DNA of 64,000 nucleotides, taken from Pseudogymnoascus verrucosus (taxonomy: Eukaryota). The translations under genes and the position numbers were made by a program. This document shows, piece after piece, positions 14,327 through 44,886 of the stretch. The stretch lies in assembly GCA_001662655.1 (NCBI GenBank), contig KV460211.1; one strand, written 5' to 3'. The notes under the pieces are model-generated. The model was not told where the DNA came from, made no database searches, and saw nothing but the letters and a program-made list of their open reading frames with translations. Positions within the stretch are counted from its first letter, which is position 1. Each line of letters begins with the position of its first letter.

Positions 14327-14425
14327 TGTAGTAGTAGTAGTAGTAGTAGTAGTTGGCTACTTACTATAGTAATAGTAGTAATAGTAGTAGTAGAGTAATA
14401 TAGTAGGAGAGTAGGTGGTAGTAGA
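14327..14425. repeat. (TAG)n/(CTA)n microsatellite cluster
   Basis: gtagtagtagtagtagtagtagtagt followed by degenerate tagtaa/tagtag runs. Confidence 0.85.
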
Positions 14426-16817: not shown

Positions 16818-19800
16818 ATGTCCGAAGTCGTGGCGGCTCTGCAGCCGCCTGCCCTCGAGAAGACCGGAATCCCGCTGACACTCCTCCCCGTCGGCCTCAA
16901 GGAAGCTGCGCTCGACTCGCCCACCTTCCGCGCCACAGCCGTTCACTTCTCCGACCAAGTCGAGCTGGTGGAGCGCTGGCTCGATGCGTATGTGAAGTCG
17001 ACGACCAGGTTGATCCACGATGTTGGCGCCCTTGAGGAAACTATCAATACCTTCCTCAGCCGCTCGATGCCACCTATCAATGTCTCCGAAGCCGTTTTCG
17101 ATCATGACTATACACTCCTCGCTATGCAGCGCTTCGGCGAGGGATCGCGAGACTGGTGGTCACAGTTCGTGGGCGGGGCGAAGCGGATGGAGACTATGAT
17201 GGTGGATCCCCTCAAGGCCTTCATGAGCGGCGAGCTGCGGAATTTCAAGGATGCACGGAGATACCTGGAGCAGTCACAGCGGGTGTTTGATACGACACTC
17301 GCGCGATACATGGGACAGTCGAAAACAAAGGAACCGTCGTCGCTGCGGGAGGACGCATTCCAAGTCCACGAGACGCGCAAGGCATACCTGAAAGCCTCGC
17401 TAGACTTCTGCCTCCTCGCGCCACAGGTGCGATTCACCCTCGACAAGCTCCTCGTCAAAGTATCAACAGAGCAATGGAAGGATATGAAGAAGTCACGCGA
17501 GCTAGCCGGCGTGAACGCCACACGCTGGAACGCTGAGATGGAGCGTATAAAAGGGTGGAGTCGCGAAATGGATTCTGGCGAGCACGTGTTCCGCCGTGAG
17601 CTGCAGGCGGCTCGGAAGGAGATCGCGCAGACGGCTAGTGTGGCAGCGCAGCCGTCGCGGGAGCTGGAGGACTATAATCTGTCTACTGTGCCGTATATTG
17701 GGGCCAAGGGACCGTCGCTGCTGAATCTGCAGGCGAGCTCGATGTCGGAGAAGCAGGGGTGGTTGTGTCTGCGCGTGATTTCGGGGAAGCCGGCGAGGAC
17801 GACGTGGGTGAGGAGGTGGTTTTATGTGAAGAATGGGATTTTTGGGTGGTTGGTGCAGGGGTCGCAGAGTGGTGGGGTGGAGGAGAGTGAGAAGATTGGG
17901 GTGCTGCTTTGTAATGTGAAGCCTGCCGTTAGTGGTAAGTTGGAGTTTATTTACTTGACGTTGTATCGATGCTGACTAGTGTTTAGAGGATAGAAGGTTC
18001 TGCTTCGAGGTCAAGACCAAAAACGCAACGATCCTGCTACAGGCCGAAACCCAAGGCGAGCTGATGGAGTGGCTCGAGGGCTTCGAGATCGCCAAGAACA
18101 ACGCCATCAAAGCAAGCGCTGATGTATACTACTCATCCACCGGCCTCGACCCAGCATTCTCCATCACACCTCCGTCAGTTCCCGAATTCGCCGCCAAGAC
18201 AGAAGGCCAAATGTCCACCACCGAAGAGTTCACCGCAGCCCCCCTAGACCGTGGAAACACTCTCCCCATCCCCAGCTTTGAGCTCAGCAACGCCCCCCGC
18301 CCTAGCGTCGACGCCTCGACTGCGCGCCGCGGGGGCCGTGAGGAAGGCGAGAGCGGCCGCGATCACGCTGCGCGAATTATTCAGAAACTCGACTTGCACC
18401 GTCGCGCGACGGCTAATGGACAGGATGCCGTGGCACCTCCGACGCCGAATCCATCGTTTGGCGCGATTGGTGGCATTGGGAGTCTCATCTCGGCTAGCCA
18501 TAATATCTTGCCTGTGTATGCGCCGCCTGTGCTCACGCAGTCGGGGACGCTGAAGTCACTGCCCGCACCGAGCGAGTTCCACACAAACACTCTCGCGCCG
18601 TCCACGCTGGCGAATCCACCGGCGCCGACGAATCTGAGTAAGACGGCCGTGGTGGTTAGTGGAGAGCGAGGCATTGGGCTGGGCAAGAGCGACGCGAGTG
18701 GGAGCATGCCGAATGGTATCCTTGCCAATCTCTGGGGAAGCAGTAATTGGGGCTACAACAACCGACTCGGAGCTGATCTTTCGGAACCGCGGAACGTGAC
18801 GAGGACGCCGTCGCCGAAGCCGCCGGGCGAGGAGGAGGGCAAGACGGTTGAGAAGATGCTTGTTGCACCGGGGACGGGGACAGCGGTGAGCACCAATATC
18901 GAGACGGGGGTGAAGGCGCAGCCGCCGTCGCCGCAGCATCGGAAGGCGTTCAGTGTTGATACGATTTCGTCGGCCTCGCAGATTTCGAAGTCTGCGCAGG
19001 CGGGGGGTCCTCAGGCTTTGGTTGTGAGGGGGGAGGAGTATCCGAGCAACTATCCGATTGAATTGAAGGCGCAAGAAGCGCAGTTTAGGACGCTGTTTGC
19101 GGATGTGCCGAGGGAGGATAAGGTGGTTCTTGTCTTTCGTGCGACTTGGAATCCGAATGATCAGCAGGAGTTCCCGGGACGTGTTTATGTTACCCAGAAG
19201 GACATGTATTTCTACAGTCACCACCTCGGCCTCGTCCTGATCACCAGCGCCTCACTAGACACCATCGACGAAGTAACAGCCGCCCCAGGCAAAGACTGCG
19301 ATTTCCTATTCCTCCACCTCAAAGAAAGCGCCATAACATCCGACTTCACACGCATCACCATCAAGACTTTCCTCGAGCCCCTCCGCCTCCTCCAATCGCG
19401 CCTAAACTACCTCATCGAGTCCCACCAACAACAATCTCCCAAATCCCTCGAGGAAATCATGACCGACCTCGTCAAGCTCGAGACAGACGCCCAACCCCCC
19501 AGCTCCAGCAACTCAAGCTGGGAAGACCTCTCCCTCCCGACGCTCAACGAACGCCGCGCCAACCGCCGTGATCGCGATCTTAAACGCGCTATTCACGTCT
19601 CGCGCGGCGCTACGCTTGAGGCTCCAAGGCCGCCGAAGTTTCAGCTTCCTGCTCATCCTGTTATCTATGAGCCGCCGGATATGCCGCATAAGTCGGTTGA
19701 GCGCATCTTCGAGACGAGTCCGAAATCCCTCTTTCACGTACTGTTCGGCGATAAGTCTGCGGTATTCCAACTCCTCTACCATGAGAGACGCGCACAGCGT

Positions 19801-21155
19801 ATCGCCCAGGGACCGTGGACGCCGCTCGAGCGCCAGGGCGACGCGCAAGGGCACATGCAGCGGGATTTCTCGTTTCAGATCGATTATACGGATCTTTTCC
19901 GGCGGCAGCGACAGGCTAATGTTGTTGATTCCCAGGTCATCGATGTGTTGAACGATCACGTCTGCTATGTCGTCTCGGACTACAAGACACCCTGGCACTT
20001 ACCGCATCACGCGGATTTCAAGCTTGTGAAAAAGATTGTTATTACTCATGTCGCGAAGTCAAGGTGTAAACTAGCTATTTTCACTGCAGTGCAGTGGTCG
20101 CATGCACCGGCTTTCTCGAAGGGGTTGGTGGAGCGACAGGCTACGGATGATTTGGATCTTGATGCACTTGACCTCGCGGATCTCGTGGCGGATCAGGTTC
20201 GGAAACTGGGACCTTCGGCACGAACGAGGAAGGCTGTGCAGATCTTTGGACATGTCGGACAGCAGACGTCTGTATCCCTCTTCTCCTCAGCTGATGGCGC
20301 GTTGCCTGCCAGACACGCTATAAAGCAACGAACTCTCGGAACGATAGTATGGGAGCGCACGTCTTCTTTCCTCGAGACGGCAGTGAGTGTGATAATGATG
20401 TGGACCTTTGCGCTACTCAAGAAGGCATGGAGTATCGCGAGCGCGAACTCGATATTATTGTCTCTCTTGGCACTGAGTGTGTTGGCGAATGTCTTCATGT
20501 CAGGCAAGGACGCTAGTGAGTGGTGGACGGAGAGGGGTGCGGCGAAGTATATGGCAAGGTTGGGGGTTGGACCTAACACGATGATGAGTAAGGCGGTGTT
20601 TATTGCGGATCTGGATGATGCGGTTCGGGTTGGTGGGGAGAGGCGGGAGGAGAGTCCTTGGTATGTTCTCATTTTTATTCTTCTATCCTTAAAGTCACCC
20701 CTAGTTTGTACGCACAGCTAACACACCCAAGCTACTTAACATTCCTATCCTTAACAAACACAACCGATCTCGACGCCCCCTTCTCCGCCTCTCACTCCCC
20801 CTCCCACTCCTCCTCCTCCTACCCCCCCCACTCCTTGCTAATCACGCGCTCCAAATCCTCCACTGCCTCTGCGCGTCGCCTATTAACAGCCCGTCAGTCA
20901 TTGGCCACGCAGAGATTTGATCTACTGGTTGCGCTGAGGGTGGTGAATAGAGTCGAGCGCGCGGTGGTGCAGGCGGAATGGGAGGAGTGGGTTAGGGGGG
21001 AAGGGGGGAGGTGTGAGGCGCTTAGACGGAGGGTGGGTGGGGGGAAGGATGCGGAGGTGGGGAAAGAGGCGCTGGAGTGGATGTTTGGGGGGGAGGGCGG
21101 GGGGTATTGTGGGAGTTGTTGGAGGGAGGAGGAGGGGTTGGGGGGGTATGTGTAG
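16818..21155 (+). CDS. SIP3: Sip3/Lam1-family membrane contact site lipid-transfer protein (BAR-PH-GRAM-VASt-TM); exons 16818-17934, 17987-20660, 20732-21155
   Basis: LKEAALDSPTFRA BAR start, EKQGWL…WVRRWFYVKNGIFGWL PH domain, FPGRVYVT GRAM-like, KSLFHVLFGD…KTPWHLP VASt, C-terminal hydrophobic helix and DLLVALRVVN motif. Confidence 0.9.
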
Positions 21156-21334
21156 ATGTTTCTTGGGTGGGATGTGAATAGCGTGGCGTTGTTTGAGCGG
21201 CTTGGATATCATGGGGAGGTGTATTTTAGTGTAGGATGGATGCATGTATGGGGTTATCTAGGTGCAGTATAGGTATTGCGGAAATGAGTCTTACCACTTA
21301 TCACTATATATTTATCTACACTTGTAGAACAGTC

Positions 21335-21395
21335 ACAGATGACCATAGACTCAAGAGAATTGGGCATCCCGTCCGCTCTGCCATACACAAGCTTG
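21335..21395 (+). pseudogene. 5S rRNA gene 5' half (nt 1-61), truncated
   Basis: acagatgaccatagactcaagagaattgggcatcccgtccgctctgccatacacaagcttg matches the recalled ascomycete 5S 5' region. TATATA about 30 nt upstream (21305). Similarity ends at CGTAACA. Confidence 0.85.
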
Positions 21396-21518
21396 CGTAA
21401 CATCAGATTAATGGTCTCAATCGTGCCAATAGGCATAGCGCGGAATCACGGCCCCTTGCCGCCTGAAGGGTGAGGCGAGGGGTGAGCAGGGTGAGTAGGG
21501 TGAGTAGGGTGAGTGAGG
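21396..21518 (+). mobile_element. Putative element terminus abutting the truncated 5S gene, ending in (AGGGTGAGT)-type tandem repeats
   Basis: 21429-21474 matches 57810-57855 at 39/46 nt by manual alignment. Followed by agggtgag units x~5. Confidence 0.55.
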
Positions 21519-21753
21519 CGAAGCAACATTTTCGTGTCAGTTTGGCGTCAATTTGTGTTGTAATAGTTACATGATCTCATGTGATCTCCGTACAGAATAT
21601 TAGTAAATTCTAGGAGTAGATTACATAGTTAGTAATACATTAATTTCTTACTTAATAGGACTGACTCTACGGGCGTTTCAGCAGGATAATCCCTATAAAA
21701 TGATGAAAAGTATTAACTTACAAGAACTACTCAATTTCAGAAGCCCTCTACTT

Positions 21754-23390
21754 TCACGCGACAGCCTTAATCTTACTCTCATCAATATGCCACATCCCCA
21801 TCAACAACTTTTTCGCCAACCCCACCTCCACCGTCGCAATCCTCTCCTGCACCTCCTCCCGACTCGTTGCCAACTTCTCCGCAACCGCCTCCCATCCCAA
21901 TCTCTCCCCTCCCTCAAGCTCTACAGCTACCAGCTTCCCATCTTTCTTCCTCACCACCCCATCCACAATCACCGTCTCCACATCTCTCACACTACTATGC
22001 CCTAACACCGCCACCACAGGATCCCACTCCGCAACCCCCGACATCGCAGGCGACCTCCCATCCACCACCACCAAATCCGCCAAATACCCTACTCTCACCC
22101 TCCCAATCTTCCCCTCCATCCCCAGTGCTCTCGCCCCTCCCACAGTAGCAAGATTAAACGCATCCCTCGCCCTTGCCACCAATCGCTGTGGAAACTCTCC
22201 CCTCTCTAACAGCTTGAGGTTCCCCTCCTGCCGCGCCAAGAGCAACAACGTCCGCGCTTCAGATAGGATGCTCGACTCGCAGAAGGCGTGGCTATCGACA
22301 CCGAGTGAGCCATGTACCCCGCTGTGTAGGGCAACGGGCCAGCCTAACCCCATTTGCGCTTCGGAGGTGGGTGTGCTGGAGACGTTGGCACCTGCGGAGT
22401 AGAGGAGGGCGTGTTCATCTGGTGTGAGACCTGTGGCGTGGGATAGGACGATGTCTGGGCCTAGGAGGCCGTATTCGTGGAGCAGCGTGACTATTGAGCC
22501 GGTGCCTGAGGTTGTGTTAGTCGCTGTTGAAGCTGCGCGGGGGAGATAGAGGTAAGTGATAAGTACGGACCACAAACAGCGTTCTTCGAAACGTGACATG
22601 TAATAACTTTAACCCCCGCCTTGCGGAATCGGTTGAATATCCCTATTATTATCTCGCGAGGGAGGAAAAAGAAGTCGAAGCCCAGTCCGATGGTGACGCG
22701 GCCATTGCCGAAAGGCTGGGAGGTCGCTAGGGCTTCGAGTTGGTCGAGAGACCATGCGGGAAGGATGTCGGATGAAAGCATGATGGAGTCTTTGGTCCAG
22801 GAGGTGAGGGGGATGCTGACGGCTGAGTAGGCGTAGATCAAGCGAAGGCCAGAGGCGGAACTTGCGGCCAGGCATTGGGTTGCTGGGGTATGTTAGGGGT
22901 CGCAGGCTGGACGAGTGAGAGGCAGAAACGACATACCGTGTTCTGCTGTATATATACTGTGCGAATGGTCGAGAACGAACGTGGTCCCCGCGTCAATGGC
23001 CTCGAGGCATCCTCCTAGCTGGCCCCAGAACATATCCTCCGGCGTGTAGTTAAAACTCTGCGGATTCCCTGCACATACTAATTAGCACTCCTCTCATTAT
23101 CTAGGAAACATCACCTTACCTGATGCCATATACTCCAGCAGCGTCTCATCCATATGACGCCCTTTTAACTGGGTCTGCCACATATGGTGATGCGTGTCGA
23201 TGAATCCGGGGGAGATGATTTTGCCGTGGCAATCGATCACTGTCGTGCCAGGAGGCACGTTGATATTCTTGCCGATCTCCGTTATCAGATTTCCTGTGAC
23301 GAGGACGTCGGTATCCTTTAAGGCAGTCACGTTGTCGGCATCGTCGTGGTAGAGGACTGTGCCGCCTTTGAGGATGATAGTTGACGTCAT
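21754..23390 (-). CDS. Metal-dependent amidohydrolase (AtzA/MTA-SAH deaminase-like); exons 23390-23120, 23068-22937, 22882-22571, 22505-21754
   Basis: PGFIDTHHHMWQT HxH motif, AGTTFVLDHSH, ITCHV, LSHA, SLGVDSH, ATVGGARALG…GYLADLVV. Three canonical introns. Confidence 0.9.
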
Positions 23391-24293
23391 CTTGCGATTT
23401 ATCCCAACAATTTATGAGAGTGCGTGGTGCAGAGTCAAAAGCTTAATGAACTTCTCAAAATATTTTACAGCTAGAACATGATGTTTAGAGTCACTTCTTT
23501 ATATGCTATAGATATGCTAACTTATAGATATTTGCTTATCATAGTTAACAAGTGATGATTTCGCCGACTGGGTGGGGTATTCTCCCATTCTTCCACACTT
23601 TCTTCAACGATCGAATGCCAAACTTCGCCGGCAGTTGGGAGCTACAGTAGAATACCATGACTCACTTCTAGTTATCAGTTAAGTTAGCAGAATTCAAGTA
23701 GTCTTTAATCAGCATGCTCCGTCGTAAGCCCGAAAGGCCGAGTATTGGGTAAGCAGGGCGGGTTTACTGCTGCTAGAGTCCCGAATTCCGATATCGCAAC
23801 ACCGAGTATTTTTTATTTCCGTATTGCCAAGTACGTTTCTGATAGCAAACGTTTGACATTCGCGTCTGATAGAGCCGGAACGCCGGATAGTAGTCCTGTA
23901 GACGGTAACGTTGTAAATGCAAAATCATGATGCAAAATCAATAATAGTCGTAGGGGATCTGATATTTGGATTCTAATCGTCGAATCCGCCTGTTACGCGA
24001 AGCCAACAACGCCTAAATATAACTTAAAAATACTGCCCATGCGTTTACCCAAGCACTTATTTTTTGAACTACTCGCATCATGCCAGGATTCATAAGGAAG
24101 CAAGAATAATTCTTTACCACATTTGTATGCTATTCAAAGCAAGCCTACGGCCCAGCAGATATATCGCACCCCACTTATCGCAAAACCTCAAGAGCAATCT
24201 ACCACGCCTATAAAATCACTTTAACTGTTCGAGTGGAAGGTATTTAGGATCTCTGAATCAACACAACGACCAGATTCATCCCAAGTCGTGAAA

Positions 24294-25723
24294 ATGGCTA
24301 TCGATTCCCAGCAAGCCAACGGCTCCTCAGAGTGGTCCGACAGTGCCTTCACCCCAACGATGCGCCTTAGCTCCGCTGGGCAGCCCGAAGTCAAGAAGGC
24401 CGTTGGCTTAGACGGACCCGTTACATTTGCTCCTACGCCGGCGCCGTCCCATAACAGTGGCCAACCGAACGGCGGATTGTGGGCATGGCTGCAAGTCGCC
24501 GCCGGGTTCTGCATCTTCTTCAATACATGGGGGGTGCTCAACACCTTCGGCATCTTCCAGACGTACTACGAGACGGGCGTGCTATTCAACGAGTCGTCGT
24601 CTAACATCTCATGGATCGGCTCCATTCAGGCGTACTGCGTCATGGTTGTCGGCCTGATATCGGGGCCGGTCTATGATAGGGGCTATCTCCGCGCGCTGCT
24701 GCTATCGGGGTCGTTTATGATCGTGTTTGGATTTATGATGTTGAGCATTTGCAGGAATTTCTGGGAGGTGTTGCTTGCGCAGGGTTTCTGCATTGGCATT
24801 GGGGCGGGACTGATCTTCGTGCCATCGTTGGCGATCCTGCCAACGTACTTTAGCACGAAGATCGGGTTGGCCATGGGCTTGGCGGCGTCGGGATCTTCGT
24901 TAGGAGGAGTCATCTACCCTATTGTATTCTACAAGTTGATTGACCAAATCGGCTTTGGCTGGTCCGTTAGGGTCATTGGCTTCATAACCCTGGGTACACT
25001 ACTTCTCCCAATCTGCTTCATGAGGATGCGAGTCAAACCGGCTAAGCCGAGGGCTATCCTTGACTGGTCAGCCTTTACAGACTGGCCGTTAGTGTTCTTC
25101 ACGCTGAGTACTATGATCGGATTCATCGGACTCTATACGATGTTGTTCTATATCTCATACTTCGCCGCTGCAGCCAATATCACTACTGCCGAAATGTCTT
25201 TCTACGTGGTCCCGATTCTGAACGCTGCATCGATATTTGGCCGAACAATTCCAAACGCCATTTCTGATAAGACTGGCCCATTGAACTGTAAGATGAACAT
25301 AGCCATTTTGTTGATCCTCGGTTAGTTACTAATATGTTAATAGTATTCGGTCCTGCCGGCATCGTCTGTGGTGTCTTAACTTTCTGCATACTCTCCGTAA
25401 AAAATCTGGGTGGTATCGTTCCCATCGCAATTCTCTATGGATTCTTTTCCGGCGTCTTCATTGCCCTCCCAGGAGTTTGCTTTGTGAAGTTGACAGCGGA
25501 TAAGTCTAAGATTGGCACGCGCATTGGAATGGGCTTTGCAGCGTTTAGTTTCGGCGTCCTAGCAGGCGGACCAGGGGGTGGTAGTGTCATTGGCAGCAAT
25601 GCTGTAGACCTTCACTGGCAACACTTATGGATCTACGGTGGTTGCACGATGATGGCTTCCGGTGTCTTGCTATTTGCTCAGAGGTTCTGGTTGTCTAAGG
25701 GTAAGGTATTTATCAAGATATAA
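24294..25723 (+). CDS. MFS transporter, monocarboxylate porter (MCH/Mch5-like); exons 24294-25287, 25344-25723
   Basis: PNGGLWAWLQV, NTWGVLNTFGIFQTYY, SNISWIGSIQ, GLAASGSSLGGVIYPI, ILNAASIFGR, IGTRIGMG. About 12 hydrophobic segments. Confidence 0.92.
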
Positions 25724-26205
25724 CTAGAGTCCTTGTTCTCGCTCTTATAAAGGCAGCTTATATAATAGGTGTTAAGGGGAACGCCTTGAGGTTGTCGCGA
25801 TAGCCAAGCAAGTCGAGAAAAGCTATGGCATAACTCGGTCCAACGCGTCAACGCCTGTATTTTTATAGGGACTTCTATTCTATTCCTGACCCACGAGCGC
25901 ACCACGAATAAAAGTCACCTAATCTTGGCCGCCATTGCCTAACATTGTCAGCTTGGTACGAAAGCAGTCCACTAACACTAAACTGGGTGATTGCAATGAG
26001 TGGAAATGGATGGACAACTAATGAGAGAGTTCTAGATTAGATTCAGCATTTCAAGAAATATACAAACGCTTGTACAAAGGGCATATATCGCCTCTTAATC
26101 CTCAGTGGCCATCAGAGCCACCACTCGACTGAGTTTAAGCTTTACTGTAAAGATAATAAGATCATTACACTTTGTATGCCTCCCCATTCATCGCACATCG
26201 TCCAA

Positions 26206-26223
26206 CCCACTGTTGTATGTTTT
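26206..26223 (+). pseudogene. Possible extreme 3' end of a 5S rRNA gene plus T-run terminator
   Basis: cccactgttgtatgt followed by T-run. TTGTATGT can pair with the 5S 5' end ACATACGA (helix I, one G-U). Only ~15 nt. Confidence 0.4.
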
Positions 26224-26508
26224 GGTCGTTTTATTTATTTGTAGATTTACTTTGTCCTTGGTGTCCACACCTTATTTAACCGGCAGGTTTATGGCTTCTT
26301 CATCTGTTGCGTATCACGTATAATATCATGTTCATTCAACACGGAGGAGCTGCATTGAGTGTATTCCTCTAGAAGGGTGTCCTAGTATTTACACCTACAA
26401 CAAGTTAGCGAAGCGGGCAGTCGGATCTGACGATTACTTGCAGAATGAAGACAGAAGGCAAAGGTTACGGGGGGTCTCGGAACGGATAATGTCACAGGGA
26501 CCAGTTGT

Positions 26509-27579
26509 TCACGATATATCTTTTTCGTCTCGAAGTCTAATTTCGTGCACCATCTCCACGTGATTCTTAAAATGGATAATGTTGTTGAGAAGTAGCCCTT
26601 CGGCCTTGCAAATTAGATACTGTAGTAGCATTCATACTTTCCTGCTGTCCTCTTTTCTAAATTCCTCTCAACATAGTCTATCATCTTGTTGGGTTTTGAG
26701 AATTTGCGCATCTGCCTATTGTAACTCTAGCGATCGTCGCTAATGTAGAATATACAGTGAGTTTTCTCGCAGATTAGGGGGAAAGTATTAGGAACAGGCG
26801 ATTCTTCCTTTACTATAGGGAACTCTCTAAGAGAAGATGCCTAGGACGATTTGCTTAACTACGACTTATAACACTAGACTTCTTAGCGACGAGATAGTTC
26901 GACTATTGTGTTGATAGCACAAATCCGTTACATGACGATGTCATGTGGATTAAGATCCTTAGAGAGGTCGCATATGATTTCTTAAAGCTAGGTCCGTTCC
27001 AGCAGCTAGTGCTTAACGACAGGCTTAACATATGTTAGTGCCATGACTATGATCTTCTTAATGATCTTCTTAAGTTCTTCTTTGTAGATATAATAGAAGT
27101 AGTCCTGCTGGTACTCCCTCTTGAGCTCTTGCTCAAGCATCTTCGTTACCGTAGTAATCTGTCTATTTAATTGATGATATTCTTCACTAGCTTCTGTTCT
27201 AATCGAACCCTGAACAAATGCGTCTCCATACAAACGCTTAAGCTCCAAGCAAAGCTCTTGCTGCTCAAGCTTAAGCTGCACCAGCTCTGGATCGGGCGGC
27301 ACTGCCTGAGGCGCGCGGGGATCACAAGTGAGGCTCATGTGCGTGAAGGCCCGGAGAAAGCCAGAATTGCTAGGCTAGTCTAGCACTGCATCTTGAACGA
27401 TAAACCTGACTTTTTTATTATTTTGTATGATCTGCAAAAGGCGCCAGTCTAGAGATTGTGTCTTAGTATCTGGTCGCGAACTGCTATCGTCGCAGCCCCT
27501 ACGCACTCGTTAGTTAAAGCAAACTATGATCAATGAGGAGTTTACCGTCAACAGTGTTTCCTGTGCCTCTACGAAAACA
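26509..27579 (-). pseudogene. DUF3435 tyrosine recombinase (Starship captain) relic, 5'-truncated and RIP-like mutated
   Basis: Manual translation: CFRRGTGNTVD|G(intron 27499-27545)AATIAVRDQILRHNL*TGAFCRSY…VRFIVQDAVLD*PSNSGFLRAFTHMSLTCDPRAP…H*LLERT*L*EIICDLSKDL…FPLICEKTHCIFYISDDR…HFKNHVEMVHEIRLR. About ten TAG/TAA stops and one frameshift near 27415. Confidence 0.85.
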
Positions 27580-27829
27580 GGGTTAACGCTACGGAAATGT
27601 AGGGGAACCCAGTAACTTTGCGAACATGGCCGAGCATACGATAATGGCGGCATCTGCACGTTTCCAGTAATTCCTACCGTAGTTTCTCATGATGGTGGTT
27701 TCCATGCTGGACTAACCCCAAAGCGCAACTATCGCTAATGCAAAGTAACCAAGCGCGAATGAATCTTCAACGAATAAAACCTAATCGTAGGTGGAAGCGA
27801 GTGCGCGCATCCAGGGCCAAATTTCCAGG

Positions 27830-28070
27830 TATCTTTATGTAGTAAATTATATGTAAATGTACAAAAGGTTAATAAATTGTGATAATTACTATGCTATTTC
27901 TAACATAAAGGTACATATAAATAATAACAAACGTTCTAAATAACTTTATTAAAAGACAAATAATAATACATTAATATACTCTATTACCTATACTAGAATA
28001 TCTAAAACTTAATAGTTATATAAAAGTGTTAATTAATAAAAATGTTATATACCTATACGAACGGGAATAA
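27830..28070. other. Very AT-rich, TpA-rich tract (RIP-like degraded DNA)
   Basis: For example taataatacattaatatactctattacctatactagaatatctaaaacttaatagttatataaaag, close to the captain relic. Confidence 0.6.
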
Positions 28071-28109
28071 AATTCGCAGCAAGCGGAAGCTGTTGAAGAT
28101 AGATATGCC

Positions 28110-29299
28110 TTAAGGGCCATTGTCAAGCTCATATGTATTAAATGGATACGATGAGCCCTTCTCGAGGAGAACAAACGGATGGTGATAAATGCCTGACTGA
28201 GTTGCAACACTCCAAACTTGACCCTGATTCTGTGCCTTCTCCCAAAAAAGGGCCATGTTGTAGAGCTCCTCAGATCGTACAGCATAAAACCAGGTGAATA
28301 ATGTGTACAAACTAACCCTTAATCGTCCTTCATAATGCTCTGTCCCAGATGCTGATACAGGTGGAGGCGTAGCCGAAGGGATAAACTTCGCGTCATACGC
28401 CCATATCCACGGTGTAGAAGTGTTAATGCACGCATCCACAACTTCGGGAGTGACGAGTAGAAATGTGTTGCTTGGAACGCGAGGATTTAGGACAGCCTCT
28501 TCCGCCAGTCGCTGCTGGAAAATGCTAGAATGGGTGTCAGTTAAGAGAAATTTCAGGATAACGGCACGAAATGAACAAACCTGCGTAGAATTTCAGGGTT
28601 ATTCTCGGACACAGGCTCGTCTGCTAAAATAAACTCTTTCGTTAGTATAATGGCTGTGCCACCGACCATCTGTCTGAGACTTTCATCTACACAACTATCC
28701 ATGACAGACAGAAACCTATCCCAAGAATCACTGTTACTGTCGCAGTCTATGGCACTATCTCGAAAGATAACAAAGCCCCAACGTCCAGTCTGTTCGCTCC
28801 ATGACATTGATGGGTTAATAAGATTTCGTACCCATTTGCAGGGTCGGTTCATGTCGTCAGCGTATTTCTTCATTGATGCCTGGATTTCTTTCCTTTTAGC
28901 CGCTGCAAAGACGTTTGATCTAACACTAGCAGCTAACAACACAGCATTATCTCGAGAAGTTGCAATTGCGTGACGGGCTTTGATGTGAGCCATAAGGTCC
29001 TCGTGACCCCAACGAAGTATGCTGTTTGCAGTCGCCTCTTGTGGACTCCAAATGTGATACCTATCCAGGACTAAACGGCATTCTTCAGAAGTCATCGACT
29101 CAGGACTTGTGAGGGCTTTGTTCTGCAATTGTTCTAGTGTGAGTCCACTGACTTTGAGACTATTAGCAACCTGTGTGGCGAGGTCTGGTTGCCGCAAAAT
29201 AACAAGTCTTTCGGCTTCTGTTATTTGGTCCGGAGTTTGGAGAACCTTGACCCATAGCTCTCTCTCTAGAGGAGTTGGAGGAATATCTGGACAGTCCAT
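28110..29299 (-). CDS. Hypothetical protein (WGFVIFR motif); exons 29299-28581, 28524-28110
   Basis: Two ORFs (248 and 109 aa) are joined in frame by a GTTTGT..CTGAC..TAG intron at 28525-28580. Confidence 0.7.
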
Positions 29300-30265
29300 C
29301 TTGATGTTTTGCGAGACTGGTGATTTCGACGCGATTTACGTTCCCAGTAGTCTTACTGAGAAATTTTGTCTCGCACATGCGCGCGTCTATCGGACAAATA
29401 GCGCCCGATGATGACCAACCATCGTCAACTGCCAACCCCACACGCACGCATTCGTATTAAGAATTCGCAACGATGCTAGTAAGTAACGTCTCCGATTATA
29501 ACATTCGTAGAAAGGAATGCTACCCAGCTCTGCTGCTCCGTTCTTTTTCACTACTATGGCACCGTACTCCCTACTTGGGCTCGTGGCTGACCTCTCTCTC
29601 CCAAGCCTACAACTCCATCTTCAACTCCGAGCTCTCCCCTCGACTAATTGGCCAACTTCCCGTCCTCCCTCTCGTTGAAAATTTGAATAATGGTGTCCTA
29701 AGCTTGGTGTCTAGCACTAGCGGATTAAATTGTGGATCTGAACATCCATTTATCCACCATGCCACCCTAGGTGCCACACCCGATGGTCTCGATGGTTGTC
29801 ACCACCCGATGGTCTCGATGATCCCTCACCAGTTACCACTGACTTATTATTCAAATCAACTCCATCTTTGGATAGGTAGGGAGTGAATCACCGGTAAGGG
29901 GGTGAGTCACGTGATAAATCAACGTTTCGAGGTGAATGATGTGATTATAGCTCGGGTGACCTCTCTTTGCTCTAAATCGGGAGGGTCTCTGGCCCAAATA
30001 ACCACGCAGAATCAGACACCAACATCTTGAAACCCCGTGATGTATTACAGTAGTTTCGTATTGTTGGGAAAAGAGGACGGGCACCGTTTTAGCTTACGTA
30101 CCTTGTTCAGGTGTCTTGCTCTTATTTTATATAACAAATACTAGACAAGAATAGCAACTTAGTTTAGAATTGGGGAGGTTTAGAATGGGGGAAGTTCAGC
30201 ATGGGGGAGTGTCAGCAAGAGAATGAAAAGAGTGTGGAAAAGGCATAAGTGGAAGCCAGAAGTCT

Positions 30266-30960
30266 TTATCTAACATGTTTCGATTCAAATGTCTCTAGGA
30301 CTTTGTCATAAAAGCCTAATTTCCCAGGGTCAAGGTAGACCCTCACGGCGTATGCTAAATTCTGGACGTCATGATTATTAAGAGTTGTCGACAGCATGTT
30401 ATCAATCTGTTTAGAAGCTTCAACACTTGCCACCTTCTCCACATATTCCTTCCGCTCTTGCCACCTTCGTCTTGTGTCCTCATCTAAGGGTTGACCATTC
30501 TCATCGTAATTCCAAGGTGCGTCCATAGAGAAAGGTACCGTTTCTAAGAAAAGCGGAAATTCCACCAACTCCCAAGGTATAGTACACGCACCTTCCCAGT
30601 TGATGACACCAAGTACCTTGTAGCTCAGTTGAAGCCGTGCGATCGATCGAGACTGATTGTCGAATTCAAGCAGGCGAACTAGGTGAAATTCTCCATTGGT
30701 GATATTTGGGAGTATTCTGCATTTGATAGAATTGTTGAGAGTTGAGGCGTAGAGACATAACTCGTCCCAATTGGTTTCTTTATGCGATCATCCAACAAGC
30801 GACGGCGGGAAGAGCCGTCGGCGTAGAAATCAGTACCCTTCCAATTCTGCCCGGAAAAAAAGAAGTCTGGTAAAGCCATTTGGGAGGAGGCTGACTTCAG
30901 AGTGAAGTGTGAAAGGCGAAAAGCGAAATGCTTCTCTTCACTACGTAAATAAGGCGGCAT
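30266..30960 (-). pseudogene. APH/kinase-like phosphotransferase pseudogene (frameshift plus internal deletion)
   Basis: After a frameshift near 30775: NWDELCLYASTLNNSIKCRILPNITNGEFHLVRLLEFDNQSRSIARLQL runs directly into YKVLGVINWEGACTIPWELVEFP…WNYDENGQP. The central catalytic region is missing. Confidence 0.65.
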
Positions 30961-31493
30961 TCTCAGGGCGCACGGCTAGAAGGTGGTGAACCCCTGTTCG
31001 ACCCCAACAACCACCATCGAAGCACACATCGCAGTTCCCAACCAACCGTTGCCCACTCCAAGAAGGTTGCGGTGAGTATCATACTCTGCACCATCTCCAC
31101 GGGGCTGTCTCTGAGATTTTCTACCCGTTTATACTGTATTGCTCAGCCGCTCTCTTACGAAGTTATCCCTATTTACGGACACGTCGTCCGAACGCGCAAG
31201 ATTGACCCAAGGCGCGGATATAGCGACACGCTATTGTAGTATAATGGAACTGTAAACAAACCTCAACAATCAAATCCTATCCCCGGTACTCCGATATGAT
31301 GGATACCATTTGGTGCTTAGTTCATGTTGAAGGAATGCGTTCCGGTTCCCCGAAAAAGGAGCTAACATACCCCAAGCTTTTTCTAACTTAGCCGGTAGTG
31401 GGTTGCTGTAGAGATGCTACGCTAGTTTAGGCACCCATTGCACATTTTAATGATTAGTGTTAATACCTGCCAAATTATCAACGACCAAAAACA

Positions 31494-32327
31494 ATGCCCG
31501 CAGCTCTGTCAAAGTTCATTCAGTTGGTTCGGCGCATGATATTGGGATCCCCAGCCCAGCGCACGCCAACCGGCAGTCAGACTATCTTTGGTCTCAACCA
31601 TCCTGACCCTGTTGCCTTTGACTTCTCCGCATCCTCGACTACCGTCGATATCACTATTCCACCCTACAGTGCCTGGATAACTCAACATCACTGGCATGAA
31701 ACCGCTTAAGCCTGCGAGACAATCGAGCCGCAAGAAGGTTCCTACATGATCAGCCTCTCTACTGTGGCTACGAGGGGTACCAGCCTTCATGTAGGTGATG
31801 GGAAAGGTTTCGTGCTGCCCTTACGCCCAGGCACGATAGTTCAGTGGAAGCGAAATCCGCACTAGGTTGGCGCAGAAAATGAGGCTACAGTGTTTCGTTT
31901 AAAAGGCCCCGTAGAGATGCTCGATTTTTATTGACAAGTTTGTAGCGTCAATCAGGATGCCGAGGTGTACTTTCAGTTACCATCAACACCTTTGTGGTTG
32001 CGCGGCCTCTATGCGTTCTGGGCTGGGATACCATACTTTGGTACGCGACTGAGAGCATGGTTAACGAGTCAGCTCCTGTGGGTTCAGCTGCAAGTTATCT
32101 ATTACAAGAACGATTACTTTACTCGTGAGGGTTCGATACCATTTACAAGGCCATGGTGGGATCTGCCAGGTGCGAGAAGACCTCCAGAGAAATGGATGAA
32201 TCGTGAGTTGCGGAGTCGTGTGATAATTTCAAAGCTTCTACAGACATGGTGTTACTACATTGGGACAACGCTGTTGGGAATGAGAAGCTGGTACGAAGAA
32301 TATAAGACGCTAAGGTCTAAAAATTAA
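31494..32327 (+). pseudogene. Single-frame 278-codon gene (cupin-like HWHE motif) with three nonsense codons
   Basis: ORFs 31494-31709 and 31965-32327 are in the same frame. Read-through passes TAA (31707), TAG (~31863) and TGA (~31932), each one C>T from CAA/CAG/CGA. Confidence 0.65.
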
Positions 32328-32865
32328 GCAAAGGGGAACGAGGTACAGGCGAAGGTGAAAGAGGGACAGAGGCGAAAGATTACTGACATGTTGGAACGAA
32401 GAGGAGTGTGGGACTGTCCCAAGTCAATTCAACTTATCCTTCGCGGACAACGCAGATGATAAAGTCTCGCTCATCCCTTTTTGTCCGCAGAATCAGAATT
32501 ATTGTTTCGCAGTCAGCTCTCGGAAAAGATGGCACGAAAGATTCAGTCAACTATAAGCTTGAACTTAGATGTCAGCTTGCTTTTGTCTTCATAATCAGAA
32601 TCGTTCTTTCGTAGTCAGCTCTGCTCAAAAATGTTGTAGGCAGCCGGTGCAACGGTGAAATGTGGTGCCGGCCTCCGATCTGAGACCTGCATGCAGCTTG
32701 GGCTGGGCTACAGCTTGTGATTTAGTTGGAGCCCCGAAGCTGTCTACATATAGTACGTAGGCCCCGTATATAGTATTAGTTATCTCCATCTTCCTTCAAA
32801 CCCATAATACCAAACCTAGCTTCTAATAACTCGCATTCCCAATTATCCTTTCGAGCGCTATCATC

Positions 32866-34080
32866 ATGGCGGGGGAGATCCTAGCATTAGTGAAGGGTAT
32901 GGACGCAGTCCACGAGGCTGGAGCATCTCACTGACAGGCAACAGAGACAACCACCTCTATCTTGTCAGACAACTCAACAAACCAGGTGGCATGGCAAACC
33001 GAATTCCTCGGCCTCGTCCCCCTCGCTTTAAACGCCATGACCCAGCCTTCCAGCCTCGACATCAACCGCCCTGAATCCAGCCTGCTCTTCATGGCTCGCA
33101 GCTCGCCATTTATATGCGTCGCAGATACCCTGGAAGTTCTCATTGCGCTCTGCCTCTACACTTATCAGGAAGGGAGCATATCCGAGGCTGCACGACTTGT
33201 GAACCGGAGAATAGCGAGGTCGAGACTTGGGAGCGGAGAGTCTGAATTAGAAGCAAGCGCTGTCGAGAAGCACCCGTGGACTTTTACTATCTTGTTTCTT
33301 GCGGCGCTGGTACCAGCGATTAAATTCCTCGGATTGCAAGGCTTATTCTGGACAAGAGTCTGGGCGGGTATTTATCTATGTCCGTACATCGTGCTCGCTA
33401 TTGTTCGCGCCCTGGCTTCTAAGGGTTGGCGCGACCGGCCCCCGGTTGCCTCTCTAGCAAAAGTGCCCTCGTTTCACGAGAAGTTGCTAGGAATTGTTAG
33501 AACTGTGCTATTGGTGGTGGCTGGCGCAGTGCATGCTTCTGTTAGCTACTGGGCTCTTATTTGCGTGCAACGTAAATATGAAGAGGTATATATAAGACCA
33601 TCGGATCTGATGGAAGGTCTTAAATTAGGGCTGCATTTTCTACCTCCGTTGTTGATAAGTGCCTCTCTCTTCCTGCTGTATTTTTATTTCATAGGGGTTG
33701 ATCTCACTTGGAGATCTATTAAAGCCGCAACGATGGTTCATCATAAATTCGACTGGGTGCCCACAGCGGCGGCTATATTGCTTTTTTCAATTCATGTTTC
33801 TCTAATGATAGGATTCGGTTATCCAAACGCATATTTGGACATTGTTAGCGGAGTTTGGCCTATACCTCTGTGCTTTGGTCTACTATTCCTGCTTTTCACT
33901 ATCTTGTCAGTTCTCTCTAATAAGGTGCCCTTTTTAAACTTTTTAGAGATCGACGATGGCGATTACAAGGCCCTTCTTGTTTTTCCATTTTTGAATTTCA
34001 TACTAGCACTTTTATATTACCTGGTTGTATATGATCCTACTGGGACAGCGAAGCCTTCGTGGACTGAGGAACTTGGGTAG
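32866..34080 (+). CDS. Multi-pass membrane protein of unknown function; exons 32866-32896, 32945-34080
   Basis: 372-aa ORF with ~8-9 hydrophobic stretches, LALNAMTQPS, RSSPFICVAD and C-terminal YDPTGTAKPSWTEELG. A short ATG exon splices in frame. Confidence 0.75.
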
Positions 34081-34342
34081 ATAGCTTTTAAATGGAGAAA
34101 TATCTATATCCATAATATACTACTGACCGGGAAGCACACGTATCGGGTAACTGGTGGCTCAAATGATGAGCGACGACTACCTGCGTCAAGTTGCGTTTAT
34201 AGAGATAATCAAAGAACCTGTTTTTCTTGTTGCTGTCTTCGAGCTGATGCAGAACGTTGACTTCTCTGTCTGGCGCAACTTGGTATGTGATATCATCGCG
34301 AGGAAGACGATAAGGACTTGTATATAGTCATTGTGAGCTGAG

Positions 34343-34398
34343 TTGTAGGAATATGACCGTCGCCTAATAATCGACGTAATATTCTCATATTCCTACAA
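34343..34398. repeat. Perfect 14-bp inverted repeat (hairpin)
   Basis: ttgtaggaatatga (34343-34356) and tcatattcctacaa (34385-34398), with inner cgtcg/cgacg. Confidence 0.8.
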
Positions 34399-34926
34399 AA
34401 TCACGTATCACATCACACATATCACATCAAATCAGACCAAAACTTATGTTCTCAAAATATCATTAATAATTAAACTCAAAACTACAAAAGCAGGTAGGTA
34501 AGCAAGAAGGGTATTATCCCAACCCCCCTGCCCCGCCTCCATCGACCAGCGACATCAATACAGCCATCATACACACCACCCAACCCAGCACAGGCAGCGA
34601 GCTCAGTGTCCACGAGCACACAACTACCTTCCATATCGCAGGCACCATTTTTTAATTTTCCACACTCGTACTTCGAGCATGCCTCCTCCTCCCTAAAAAC
34701 CAAGATAAAACTCGTACTTCAAGCTATATCACCCCCTTTGATTTCTCTCTCTCTCTCTTTGATGTGTGTGCTGGGTCATGTTGGGCTTATCGGCCACCAG
34801 GGCCATCCAGAAATTGCTGGATTAAGGACATAGTACTCATCTCCCGAAGACAACCACTGGGATCTAGAATCACGAGGACCAGCCCTAGCGCCCCATCCGC
34901 GGATGGGAGCAACGTCACGGGGCCTG

Positions 34927-35541
34927 CTACGAGTCGTCGTCTAGGAGGACCCAGTCTGGGTCTTGGGGGATGAAGGTCCATGATGGGTCGGCGAGTTTGG
35001 TGGTGGTGATGAGTGTTGCTGTGGGTTTGTCTGTGCCGTCTGTCGCTCCGGGGGTATGGAGGGGGACGGGGAATTGCGTGGGGAACGACGCGTGTGTTGT
35101 TGGTAAGGACTGGTGTTGGAGTGTCTGTGTCTCCTTCTCCGCTGGCTCCTGGGGGGATTGCAAAGTGGTGAGGCGCAGGATCTCGGAGTCGTCCATGAGG
35201 TAGGAGGACAGGAGGGGGGGCGTGGGGATTGTCAGGGGTGAACGCCGGGAGTTGTGCCGTCTCATTGTTTTTGAGAGTTTTGCGGGTTTGGAGAGGACGT
35301 TGTAGAGGCGGTAGGGGAGAGGGGGAAAGTTAACATCCTTGTCCTTGGCCTCGTCCTTGTCTCCGTCCTTGGTATCCTCGTTGTTGACGCCTGCGGTGAA
35401 CACTCCAGACTCCAGTGTGGGTGCCTCGCTCTTCTTCTCGCCGTCGTCGCGGATGGAATCGTATAGGATGCCAAGAGCGCGCAACGCCTGTGCTTGTATA
35501 AGCTCGTCTCCTTTGTCTTGAGTCCCTATTGAAACTGACAT
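34927..35541 (-). CDS. Hypothetical low-complexity protein (204 aa)
   Basis: Intronless ATG ORF with host-like codon bias. No recognisable domain. Confidence 0.45.
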   Translation of the reverse strand: MSVSIGTQDKGDELIQAQALRALGILYDSIRDDGEKKSEAPTLESGVFTAGVNNEDTKDGDKDEAKDKDVNFPPLPYRLYNVLSKPAKLSKTMRRHNSRRSPLTIPTPPLLSSYLMDDSEILRLTTLQSPQEPAEKETQTLQHQSLPTTHASFPTQFPVPLHTPGATDGTDKPTATLITTTKLADPSWTFIPQDPDWVLLDDDS

Positions 35542-35676
35542 GGTGGTGGAGTGGAGATAGGTGTGAGATGGTGGATAGAGAGGTGAGGTGGTGTAGTGGA
35601 GTGAGTGGGTTGATGAGTGGTGAAAGACTGAGAGAAGATGGGTGTAGACGTGTGCATGTATCTGCAGTATGCAGAA

Positions 35677-36042
35677 CTAGGGATCGGTATAATCGATGTC
35701 CCCCCACAGGGCATACACGACGCCGAGCATACTGGCACAGAGACTTACGTCATCGTCTGCATCACCCCCGAAGAGGCGGCACTGCTCATCCTCCTCCTCG
35801 CGCCGCACCTCGTGCGCCATCCATGCCAGCCAGCTACGTTCGAGCGACTGTGGCTGTGCGCCGCCTGGGAAGGGACCCGAAAGGGGTAGGAACGCCGTGT
35901 CGTGTGCCAAGAAGGCGCCCTCGAGGTACTCGTCGCGCGGATCAACTTTGCGGGAGAGGGCGTGGCGTTTGCGTGCTCCGCGACGCATGCGGCGACGGTT
36001 TTTGGGGAAGGAGGGGACCGGTGTGACACCTGGTATGACCAT
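35677..36042 (-). CDS. Small hypothetical protein (~121 aa)
   Basis: ATG at 36042 (MVIPGVTP…). Basic patch RRRMRRGARKR and acidic C-terminus EQCRLFGGDADDDVSLCASMLGVVYALWGDIDYTDP, reminiscent of small conserved ascomycete proteins. Confidence 0.5.
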   Translation of the reverse strand: MVIPGVTPVPSFPKNRRRMRRGARKRHALSRKVDPRDEYLEGAFLAHDTAFLPLSGPFPGGAQPQSLERSWLAWMAHEVRREEEDEQCRLFGGDADDDVSLCASMLGVVYALWGDIDYTDP

Positions 36043-36489
36043 GTTTGCGAGAAGCGGAAATCGAGATTTATAGGAAATAGAAATGATTCTTCTTTCAATC
36101 CAGGAGATGGGCAAAATTGGACGGGGATTAACCCCGAGAAAAGGGAAAACTATCACTTCGCCAGTGGCAAGAGTAGAAAGTGTAGAGGAGAAGTGAGTAG
36201 ATAGAATATGAAGCCAAGGAGATGTAGCAAACCTTTATAGATATGACGATGACTCCCTCCCGTTCCTCCCGAGGAGTAACCTTCCAGGCTTCCAGGGCTT
36301 CCCGAATGCCCAGACTGTCCCCGCTAGAGTCACGAGTACTTACAACTTTATGGTGTATGAAGGTGTGAGTCGGTGATGCTATCAGGCGGCGCGGTAAATC
36401 GAGGGATTGTTGAGGTATAGTGGAGGATGATGAGATGTGTGTGGGATGAGGCGTGATTGGTATAAATTTTGGTGGGATGTGGTTGGTGT

Positions 36490-36526
36490 GGGTGTAACTG
36501 GGTGTAACTGGGTGTAACTGGGTGTA
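36490..36526. repeat. 10-bp tandem repeat (GGGTGTAACT) x3.7
   Basis: gggtgtaactgggtgtaactgggtgtaactgggtgta read directly. Confidence 0.85.
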
Positions 36527-37188
36527 GGTGGTTGGCAGGTTTGACTCACATGGAGAGAGAGGTTGGTAGTCATACGGAGTTATCATCCAGTGACACAGCC
36601 ACACGACAAGGCAGAGAAACAGGATTAATCCCAATGCGGCCTGGGAAATGCAGGGTTTAGATAGTATTTAAGGCTTTTTGCACATGATTACTTGGATTTT
36701 TAGTGATTTTTAGAGCATTTGAGAGTATTTTATTCTTTTTTCTGAAACTTTTTATAGAGTGTGACTTCATAAGTGAGGCGGTCCTGCAGGTGTCAAAATC
36801 TCAGAATAGTACGTACCTACGTAATTGTGGTGTAATCTTTATCGGGCTTTATCGGAGAGTCTCCGATGCACGTGACACCCCACCAAAAATAAATCATGAT
36901 AAAAAATTGATGACTAAGACAGGGACGGACCCCGGATCACGTGATTGCAAATACAACCCCACAAAAGAAAGTCTGTGCTCTAACCTAACAGAATCGATTA
37001 CGCTAGACCCTGTTGGTATAGGCGGTCACTGCCGGCAATTCGAGATAGCACCCCCAAAAAAGTTTTGGTGATACTGAGAAAGAACTACTGCGAAAGAAGT
37101 CCTAAGTTCTATTCCTGCCCCAACGACGGTGTGATGCCCGCCATTCAACAATCTTAGAGGCCTCCACGGGCGCGATTCAAATACCACC

Positions 37189-44312: not shown

Positions 44313-44718
44313 AGCACGCACATTTGGAATAGTAATTAGTAGAATACCCAGTTGGAGTTGGGTGTGCACATTTGGAGATCTCTGTACAGCGTTATATGAG
44401 CTAGTAGGTCAATGGCAGGTATACGCAGTAGTCATAATAGATAGTAAACGGAAGCTTTACCCTGAGACCATCTCTTACCCTCTGAATTTAAGCTACCTCG
44501 TCGCTGTGTTTGCACCTACCAATAGAATATGTAGATAAAGTAGTAATTATGTTCTTTGGTTGGTAATAATCCCCAAGGCAATCCGGACCTTGCAATACCA
44601 TGAGGAGAGGGTTACGGGGCAAGGAGGCCAGAGCACAATGGCACAGTATGACAAGTTGTTGAAAATTTGTATCGAAGAAGAGCCTTCACCAGCCTCCGGA
44701 TATCAGCATATTGTTACA

Positions 44719-44779
44719 CAAGCTTGTGTATAGCAGAGCGGACGGGATGCACAATTCTCTTAAGTCTATAGTCGTATGT
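44719..44779 (-). pseudogene. 5S rRNA gene 5' half (nt 1-61), truncated, with C>T changes
   Basis: Minus strand: acatacgactatagacttaagagaattgtgcatcccgtccgctctgctatacacaagcttg then TGTAACA. TATATATA lies 23-31 nt upstream (44802-44810). Confidence 0.88.
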
Positions 44780-44886
44780 AGCAATTATAGTCGTATAGGA
44801 GTATATATATAGAATATCGAGTTGGGATTACCCCTCAACCCACCAAGCCAGTTTACTAATACACCATACTCCCCTTTCCTTCCCCC

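Follow-up and report, generated by a model that had tools for sequence, protein, structure and literature searches.

The closest described systems to the locus treated here are the captain genes of Starship transposons such as Hephaestus, Pegasus and Voyager. DUF3435 proteins are described in PMC10104507 as the first gene of a Starship, carrying an R-K-H-R-Y catalytic pentad, and the survey of PMC11162782 recognizes 11 captain families. PMC11162782 places the start of the captain within 7 kb, and usually 2 kb, of the upstream element boundary, with the gene pointing inward. The present analysis concerns a relative of these genes in Pseudogymnoascus verrucosus, on a stretch of 64,000 nucleotides (nt) of contig KV460211.1 (assembly GCA_001662655.1), referred to below as the window. 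The final 44% of a DUF3435 tyrosine-recombinase gene, equivalent to residues 438-783 of 783, occupies the minus strand from 27579 to 26509. It is very probably a dead fragment bearing mutations of the type left by repeat-induced point mutation (RIP).

The remnant (26509..27579, minus strand) was recognized from a match to PF11917, from tblastn with P0001 and other intact relatives, and from a census of its stops and mutations. The list of open reading frames (ORFs) for 25-29.5 kb has a sole entry at this locus, a frame of 110 amino acids at 27006-27338 on the minus strand. In the minus-strand frames of 26509-27802, the motifs quoted in a preliminary description of the stretch are scattered across frames and interrupted by stops. 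When stops were translated as X, a single frame of the three matched PF11917 (DUF3435) at E 9.9e-10 and 38.3 bits against a gathering cut-off of 25.8 bits, while the other two show no Pfam match. The match covers only positions 239-353 of the 418 in the profile; intact relatives score 219-225 bits over positions 2-418. The X-read frame was also searched against the longer proteins of a large collection, where seven of 1087 candidates matched and all seven contain PF11917. The best of them is P0001, a hypothetical protein of 783 amino acids from Pseudogymnoascus destructans, with 74% BLASTP identity over 80% of the query. The remaining matches belong to Pseudogymnoascus sp. 05NY08, P. destructans, Rutstroemia, Sclerotinia (two) and Monilinia.

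When intact relatives were aligned to the window by tblastn, 27579 to 26512 corresponded to residues 438-783 of P0001, and no second match at E ≤ 1e-3 was found anywhere in the 64 kb. The remnant is identical to P0001 at 261 of 337 aligned codons (77%), and 119 of the 156 family proteins match it. The motifs CFRRG, LRHN...SY, MSLTCDPRAP, FPLICEKTHCIF and HFKNHVEMVH are all found in the remnant. The preliminary description, which had proposed a hidden DUF3435 tyrosine recombinase from FRRG, RH...Y, MSLTCDPRAP and HFKNHVEMVH and had called for a PF11917 profile check, is borne out on each of these points by the profile match and the intact relatives. The family is a large one: searched against a whole protein library, P0001 retrieved 1909 representatives at E ≤ 1e-3. 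No searchable paper mentions the intact relatives' locus tags.

The DUF3435 domain of P0001 spans residues 170-657. The remnant is without the first 268 of these 488 residues and without the entire N-terminal extension. The fold was examined on intact P0001 instead of the remnant, using an alignment of 70 family sequences that also served to measure conservation. The resulting AlphaFold model reached a predicted local distance difference test (pLDDT) score of 85.1; an earlier model from six sequences, with a pLDDT of 37.3, was unusable. The top Foldseek match is a Cre/Tre recombinase (E 1.2e-5, probability 1.00, target TM-score 0.68), followed among 27 matches at E ≤ 1e-3 by the integron integrase IntI, Tn1549 Int, lambda Int and XerA. 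A Cre/integrase-like catalytic fold is predicted on this basis for the intact protein. A profile search of PDB sequences returned no recombinase, and only chance matches to EsxB. Identity to Cre and the prokaryotic tyrosine recombinases is about 12-13%, and the fungal proteins differ from Cre in their long N-terminal extension, coiled-coil region and Cys/His tail.

Conservation among the 70 family members is 90% or higher at G429, R440, R441 and Y473. The remnant retains the RRG motif (R440/R441), H462 and Y473. Everything before residue 438 is lost, including the Arg of TGxRP (R209) and the Lys of KG (K320), the catalytic roles of all these residues being assigned from motif position. The complete R-K-H-R-Y pentad of PMC10104507 is not present, and with its upstream Arg and Lys missing the remnant is predicted to be inactive and now incapable of recombination. 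The family tail (26512-26800, minus strand) contains conserved zinc-finger-like motifs, QCxxC...HxExxH and CxHPxC...FKxHxxxxH, which no Pfam model covers. Several of the motif Cys and His residues in the tail of the remnant have been turned to Tyr through transitions.

The locus shares with the Starship captains a Pfam family, a Pezizomycotina host and a gene that points toward possible cargo, and its intact relative shares the Cre-like fold and the conserved R...K...RRG...H...Y positions. It differs from them in that only the last 44% of the gene is left, full of stops, with no element boundary, terminal repeat or empty site shown. The orientation is compatible with that of a captain; no upstream boundary was located.

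What remains of the gene is its last exon, preceded by a 47-nt intron and by 12 codons of another exon. In these exons lie the FRRG motif with the second catalytic Arg, the His of LRHN, the region of the Tyr nucleophile (RSY) and the C-terminal Cys/His-rich tail. The predicted spliceosomal intron lies at 27499..27545 on the minus strand, reads GTAAAC...ACTAAC...TAG, is in phase 1 and splits Gly449. Its excision gives CFRRGTGNTVDGAATIAV..., colinear with P0001, and over the longer stretch CFRRGTGNTVDGAATIAVRDQILRHNL*TGAFCRSY, colinear with CFRRGTGNAVDGAATTAVRDQILRHNPQTGVFCGSY of P0001. This intron (27545 to 27499), and not damage, accounts for the seeming shift of frame from ...GNTVDG to AATIAV.... 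Among the 150 best family representatives, 19 are short proteins that start at query residues 445-462, just past the intron. The many ORF-called family "proteins" in databases that start right after it (P0001 residue 460) are probably second exons, not truncated genes.

There are 11 premature stops, eight TAG and three TAA, with no TGA. At these positions the intact relatives P0001 and P0002 both have Gln at eight, Arg at two and Ser at one. The stops at Arg need two transitions each and the stop at Ser a transversion. The preliminary description had nearly all stops as TAG or TAA derived from Gln codons; this holds for the stop codons in every case and for the Gln origin in eight of the 11. 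It had also counted about 340 codons by reading through the stops; here the intron has to be removed and further lesions allowed for. Two frameshifting insertions lie near 27420-27424 and 26614-26623, and there is one in-frame deletion of 24 nt. At 26614-26623, 3+2 letters are missing from paralogous contigs in three of four related runs (X2, X3, X6 and X7). The natural stop is a TGA at 26509-26511.

The first 437 codons are lost, and unrelated repeated DNA stands in their place. The truncation is sharp, as 21 tblastn high-scoring segment pairs from the 156 family proteins stop exactly at 27579. The N-terminal half was sought throughout the window with three N-terminal halves by tblastn at E ≤ 10, and in 27580-37600 and 27570-27860 by six-frame Pfam scans, and nothing was found. 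An unfiltered six-frame search of the whole window with family profiles, built from 60 sequences for residues 170-437 and from 67 for residues 330-437, reached no better than E 0.45; the profile of residues 438-657 reached 7.6e-45 in that search. The earlier statement that the 5′ part is absent beyond 27579 is confirmed by all three kinds of search. A high-scoring segment pair of P0154 that reaches 27857 was considered as a candidate N-terminal extension and rejected, its upstream part not being significant. The replacing DNA (27580..28340) is very AT-rich in part (27840-28080), is repeated in the relatives and has no protein-family signal. Depth, taken as summed assembly contigs of the four related runs on 19000-38999, is about 1-7 times single copy in the bin 27671-28337.

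RIP is a C-to-T type of mutation, with a preference for CpA to TpA, that acts on duplicated DNA. To infer the direction of change, codons of the remnant were compared with the residues common to P0001 and P0002, which coincide at 303 positions. The remnant has the same residue at 241 of them; 54 differ by one inferable base change, five by more than one, and three are ambiguous. The 54 single changes comprise 26 G>A, 19 C>T, one A>G, one T>C and seven transversions. Changes from G:C to A:T thus outnumber the reverse by 45 to 2 (binomial p = 1.6e-11). By context, counted on both strands as changes seen against sites left, CpA shows 26 changes with 122 sites left (17.6%), CpG 15 with 87 (14.7%), CpC three with 70 (4.1%) and CpT one with 176 (0.6%). 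CpA is favored over the other contexts with an odds ratio of 3.7 (p = 4.8e-5).

The affected DNA is also repeated. Depth over 26337-27003 is 205/152/159/184 in the four runs against a single-copy level of about 54/21/36/38, and over 27004-27670 it is 106/88/76/93, so that 26337-27670 stands at 2-7 times single copy in all four. The duplication that RIP presupposes is therefore present in the relatives, and the excess of transitions at CpA falls in duplicated DNA, as in RIP-affected repeats. A Rid homologue is reported for P. destructans in PMC6709928.

The classical indices speak less clearly. RIP is conventionally called at TA/AT > 0.89, (CA+TG)/(AC+GT) < 1.03 and a composite RIP index (CRI) > 0. 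The remnant itself (26509-27579) gives 1.09, 1.13 and -0.04, so that one of the three passes. The interval 26400-28100 gives 1.10, 1.02 and +0.08, and the replacing DNA at 27580-28100 gives 1.15, 0.86 and +0.29. The preliminary description had spoken of destruction by RIP-like mutation and had proposed computing the indices over 26.4-28.1 kb. Its reading stands as regards the 45-to-2 polarity, the CpA and CpG contexts and the multi-copy state; the classical indices pass only in part, over the remnant by a single ratio.

Several points weigh against RIP as the agent. The indices over the remnant go only half way, with (CA+TG)/(AC+GT) and CRI on the wrong side. CpG accounts for 15 of the 45 G:C to A:T changes, which plain deamination of 5-methylcytosine would also be expected to produce. 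The direction of change was deduced from protein relatives and not from aligned DNA copies, and summed-contig depth is a crude measure of copy number. RIP does not account for the frameshifts, the deletion or the truncation, and decay of another kind has therefore contributed. The same CpG share, the negative composite index, the indels and the truncation would suit ordinary pseudogene erosion by AT-biased mutation and 5-methylcytosine deamination with no RIP at all, but this is quite improbable, as the 45-to-2 excess surpasses even an assumed 3:1 bias (p = 1.8e-4), CpA is hit hardest while CpT is nearly untouched, and the stretch is repeated DNA. We read the decay as probably light RIP, or a RIP-like process, combined with ordinary decay, and we infer RIP proper as the agent. 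There is precedent in RIP-degraded or orphan copies, such as Pegasus, which is described as mutating in crosses (PMC10104507), and the "tyr" fragments of P. destructans; these too are repeated and inactivated by mutation of the C-to-T type. The present case differs from the Pegasus crosses in that RIP is deduced from polarity at the protein level, with classical indices that agree by half.

The gene identity, the truncation, the mutation spectrum and the multi-copy status, all observed here, are consistent with the following history. An intact DUF3435 recombinase gene, of the family that supplies Starship captains, would have been the starting point. Its first 437 codons would have been lost, with unrelated repeated DNA coming to stand in their place. 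Transitions from G:C to A:T, mainly at CpA and CpG, created TAG and TAA stops from Gln codons and altered conserved Cys and His residues. The putative agent is RIP or a closely related process of cytosine deamination on duplicated DNA. We also infer that the copy was once part of a Starship-like element. The copy may or may not once have moved the amidohydrolase and transporter genes beside it.

These two genes lie on the side to which the remnant points. The amidohydrolase gene occupies 21754..22841 on the minus strand in two ORF pieces (Pfam Amidohydro_1, E 9.3e-18), and the gene for a major facilitator superfamily (MFS) transporter occupies 24288..25723 on the plus strand, also in two pieces (Pfam MFS_1, E 5.3e-20). 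The preliminary description made the recombinase the integrase of an island at 21.4-34.4 kb with this pair in the cargo position. Its argument from orientation is sound in itself, as a captain points into its element (PMC11162782). The larger claim is not upheld, since neither terminal repeats nor an empty site nor a boundary at 34.4 kb was found.

The account that survives best treats the remnant as an orphan. It would belong to a piece of a repeat family about 2.1 kb long (~26240-28340) that carries only the 3′ half of the recombinase, landed or was left by rearrangement at this place and is functionally unlinked to its neighbors. The raised depth is confined to about 26.3-28.3 kb, and the amidohydrolase and MFS genes are single copy in the relatives by contig depth. 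In run X2, which is nearly identical, contigs end at 26387-26633 and 27987-28387; the break at 27579/27580 is sharp, with another repeat beyond it. Comparable material has been catalogued. The starfish program was run on Pseudogymnoascus genomes, and the supplement of PMC11162782 gives P. destructans "tyr" neighborhoods; at least three rows of its Table S3 are shorter than 1 kb, and these short "tyr" rows resemble the remnant in size. This explanation leaves the discordant history of the adjoining genes unaccounted for, and likewise the captain-to-cargo orientation, although the latter has even odds by chance. It stands at a little short of an even chance of being right.

The discordance was measured for the block 21506-26387, which includes both genes. 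In X2 the block diverges by 0.37% and the flanks by 0.05% (p 1.4e-6); in X3 the values are 1.10% and 3.28% (p 2e-14), and in X6 they are 6.17% and 3.99% (p 8.5e-7). Run X7 lacks cover at 21668-23001 and 24336-25669, and these gaps were not used as evidence. The ratios of 8, 0.33 and 1.5 lie beyond any single relative rate, which means that the block has its own history. Its genealogy differs from that of the flanks, which fits transfer by a mobile element and equally fits introgression or recombination. The discordance is one hint in favor of mobility.

A second explanation makes use of this hint and proposes a smaller derelict Starship-like block, running from about 21555 to 28.3-30.08 kb, with the amidohydrolase and MFS genes as cargo and the remnant as the decayed captain. 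Three of the four runs have single contigs in which 21401, 21446 or 21504 is connected to 30084-30087, and in one contig of X2 a gap of 36 letters separates 21550 from 30084. These joints suggest that the two sides are neighbors in other copies of the repeat, while about 8.6 kb lies between them here. A short piece near 30105 shows about 7-12 times single-copy depth. Besides the joints and the discordant divergence in X2, X3 and X6, the explanation draws on the orientation, with an expected captain start about 1.2 kb from 30084, and on the MFS gene, whose few close relatives suggest an accessory gene. Among those relatives with an organism name, only that of Pseudogymnoascus sp. VKM F-4519 is close (93%); two more matches stand at 96% and 88%, and all others are at 76% or less and in other classes. 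Their sources call them monocarboxylate transporters.

The objections are considerable. The contig joints rest on matched sides of 25-48 nt within repeats. Terminal-repeat scores between 21380-21700 and 29900-30200 equal the shuffle mean. A length of 8.5 kb is far under the 27-393 kb given for described Starships in PMC9156397. The block contigs of X3 and X6 are physically unlinked to the flanks in those assemblies, and introgression or recombination with no transposon would fit the divergence as well. A smaller block of this kind is possible, though doubtful. In its most specific form it would be a decayed Starship-like element in miniature, some 8.5 kb long (21.55-30.08 kb), lodged in a high-copy repeat derived from 5S DNA, whose amidohydrolase and monocarboxylate-transporter cargo was recently exchanged between Pseudogymnoascus lineages; this fuller version is unlikely. 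If it were true, the truncated 5S-like halves described below would be the scars or targets of that element family.

The 5S-like sequence was the second support of the preliminary description, which placed a 5S junction at 21395. Starships that target 5S ribosomal DNA (rDNA) include Voyager and many of the Enterprise and Arwing families, and the 5S-like sequence here does end abruptly, roughly 5 kb from the remnant on its downstream side, toward which the gene points. Voyager, however, is reported to insert 20 bp from the start of the 5S gene (PMC9156397), as against a break near position 66 here. The 5′ half at 21335..21402 (plus strand) aligns with positions 1-66 of RF00001 at 10.2 bits and E 8.5. 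This alignment arises only with the input cut at 21400 (21320-21400), and the cut itself created the label of a 3′-truncated match to positions 1-66. No Rfam 5S match reaches the gathering score in the whole window, and none appears at E ≤ 10 in 19500-36500, 21300-21600 or 21320-21419. The core GCATCCCGTCCGCTCTGCCATACACAAGC is one we take to be 5S-like, judged by eye against fungal 5S sequences.

This half belongs to a unit some 230 nt long (21326-21554) whose copy number in the relatives is very high; the bin containing it has a depth of 1451-2431, or 40-70 times single copy, across the four runs. Many related contigs depart from the window sequence at 21326-21341, 21395 and 21554. In some contigs a joint from 21467 back to 21354 suggests tandem copies of the unit. 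As the unit is a very abundant repeat, a copy close by is weak evidence for an insertion junction. A second 5′ half at 44712..44779 on the minus strand is identical to the first at 61 of 68 nt (score 101, reached by 0 of 300 shuffles). The two share an upstream TATA-rich stretch and diverge after the same ...GTAACA. The second has several additional C-to-T differences, with a small Ser/Gly-rich ORF on one side of it and a GST gene on the other, and tblastn with the family over the window finds no recombinase beside it. Pseudogenes of 5S RNA truncated at the 3′ end are common in Aspergillus.

The complementary 3′ half was not found by cmscan at E ≤ 10 over 19500-36500. A 13-nt motif of that half is likewise absent from 19500-36500; over the whole window it occurs twice, at 14346 and 59791, which is the number expected by chance. 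No element flanked by both halves of one 5S gene is seen. The proposed junction is reduced to a sub-threshold 5′ half within a high-copy repeat, with a lone twin at 44.7 kb.

The far side of the proposed island was equally bare. There is no mark of a boundary at 34.4 kb. The GC content is 0.47 in 21.4-34.4 kb, 0.53 on its left side and 0.49 on its right, and no clear island emerges. Direct and inverted repeat scores between 21330-21650 and 34100-34600 were reached by 92 and 113 of 300 shuffles. Local alignments of 21330-21650 with 34100-34600, 28000-28450 and 29900-30200, in both direct and inverted sense, all fall within the range of 300 shuffles, so the terminal repeats of a Starship are not seen at the candidate ends. 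In X6, 30178-34122 is present at an ordinary 3.5% divergence, against 3.2% for the right flank. The six-frame scan of 27580-37600 found no Pfam family, and hence no known Starship accessory domain. None of the contigs from the four runs on 19000-38999 bridges the region as an empty site; the assemblies break at repeats.

On this evidence a 13-kb Starship (21.4-34.4 kb) inserted in a 5S gene, with the remnant as captain and the amidohydrolase and MFS genes as cargo, is very unlikely: its orientation toward 21.4 kb, a boundary about 5.5 kb from the expected captain start and so within the 7 kb of PMC11162782, the 23% of curated Starship insertion sites that this source places in 5S rDNA, the 5S-like half that stops near 21400 and the discordant block all speak for it, but they are set against a 5S match below every Rfam threshold with no 3′ half found, a matching truncated half without an adjoining element, a repeat too abundant for its proximity to be specific, and the absence of terminal repeats, accessory families and an empty site from the comparisons above.

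The surroundings of the remnant are otherwise unexceptional. The flanks hold ordinary genes, with BAR-domain and VASt/GRAM genes to 20.7 kb on one side and UTP10/HEATR1 from 37.6 kb on the other. Between the remnant and the repeat piece at 30.08 kb lies an intact ORF of 248 amino acids (28553..29299, minus strand), which has no Pfam family and no usable Protein Atlas match. It has 13 relatives; all four whose organism is given come from Pseudogymnoascus and are 248-382 amino acids long and 59-84% identical, and another match stands at 98%. Along with the matches of the recombinase and the MFS transporter, these protein relatives agree with a host within Pseudogymnoascus or close to it. For the ORF at 32962-34080, the Protein Atlas gives ascomycete clusters only. 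The rest of the window encodes a poly(A) polymerase, a NACHT-ankyrin gene, Zn-cluster factors, a GST and an acyl-CoA dehydrogenase.

Some further features of the window may be recorded. Just upstream of the 5S-like unit, 20600-21160 is a low-complexity region, first C-rich and then G-rich, with imperfect inverted repeats, for example 20794-20816 with 21125-21147 (83% complementary). The bins 14001-15000, 5001-6000 and 44001-45000 pass all three RIP thresholds, with CRI values of +1.11, +0.28 and +0.16. A microsatellite of the GTA/TAG type occurs at 14.3-14.4 kb within AT-rich DNA. At 6686-9443 on the plus strand, an ORF with NACHT/NPHP3_N is followed by one with many ankyrin repeats; the gene has the look of a fungal NLR, and an intron or a frameshift may split it.

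Among Pezizomycotina, degraded copies of DUF3435 genes are common. A search of the literature for Starships in Pseudogymnoascus yielded none, the two terms occurring together only in a DNA-repair review that handles them separately. The remnant is an ordinary relic of a known kind, and fragments like it have already been catalogued as a class. For annotation, its value is that the locus should be entered as a pseudogene rather than a gene, and that it serves as a marker of mobile-element history in the interval. The separate genealogy of the neighboring block could document gene exchange within a genus that includes the pathogen of bat white-nose disease.

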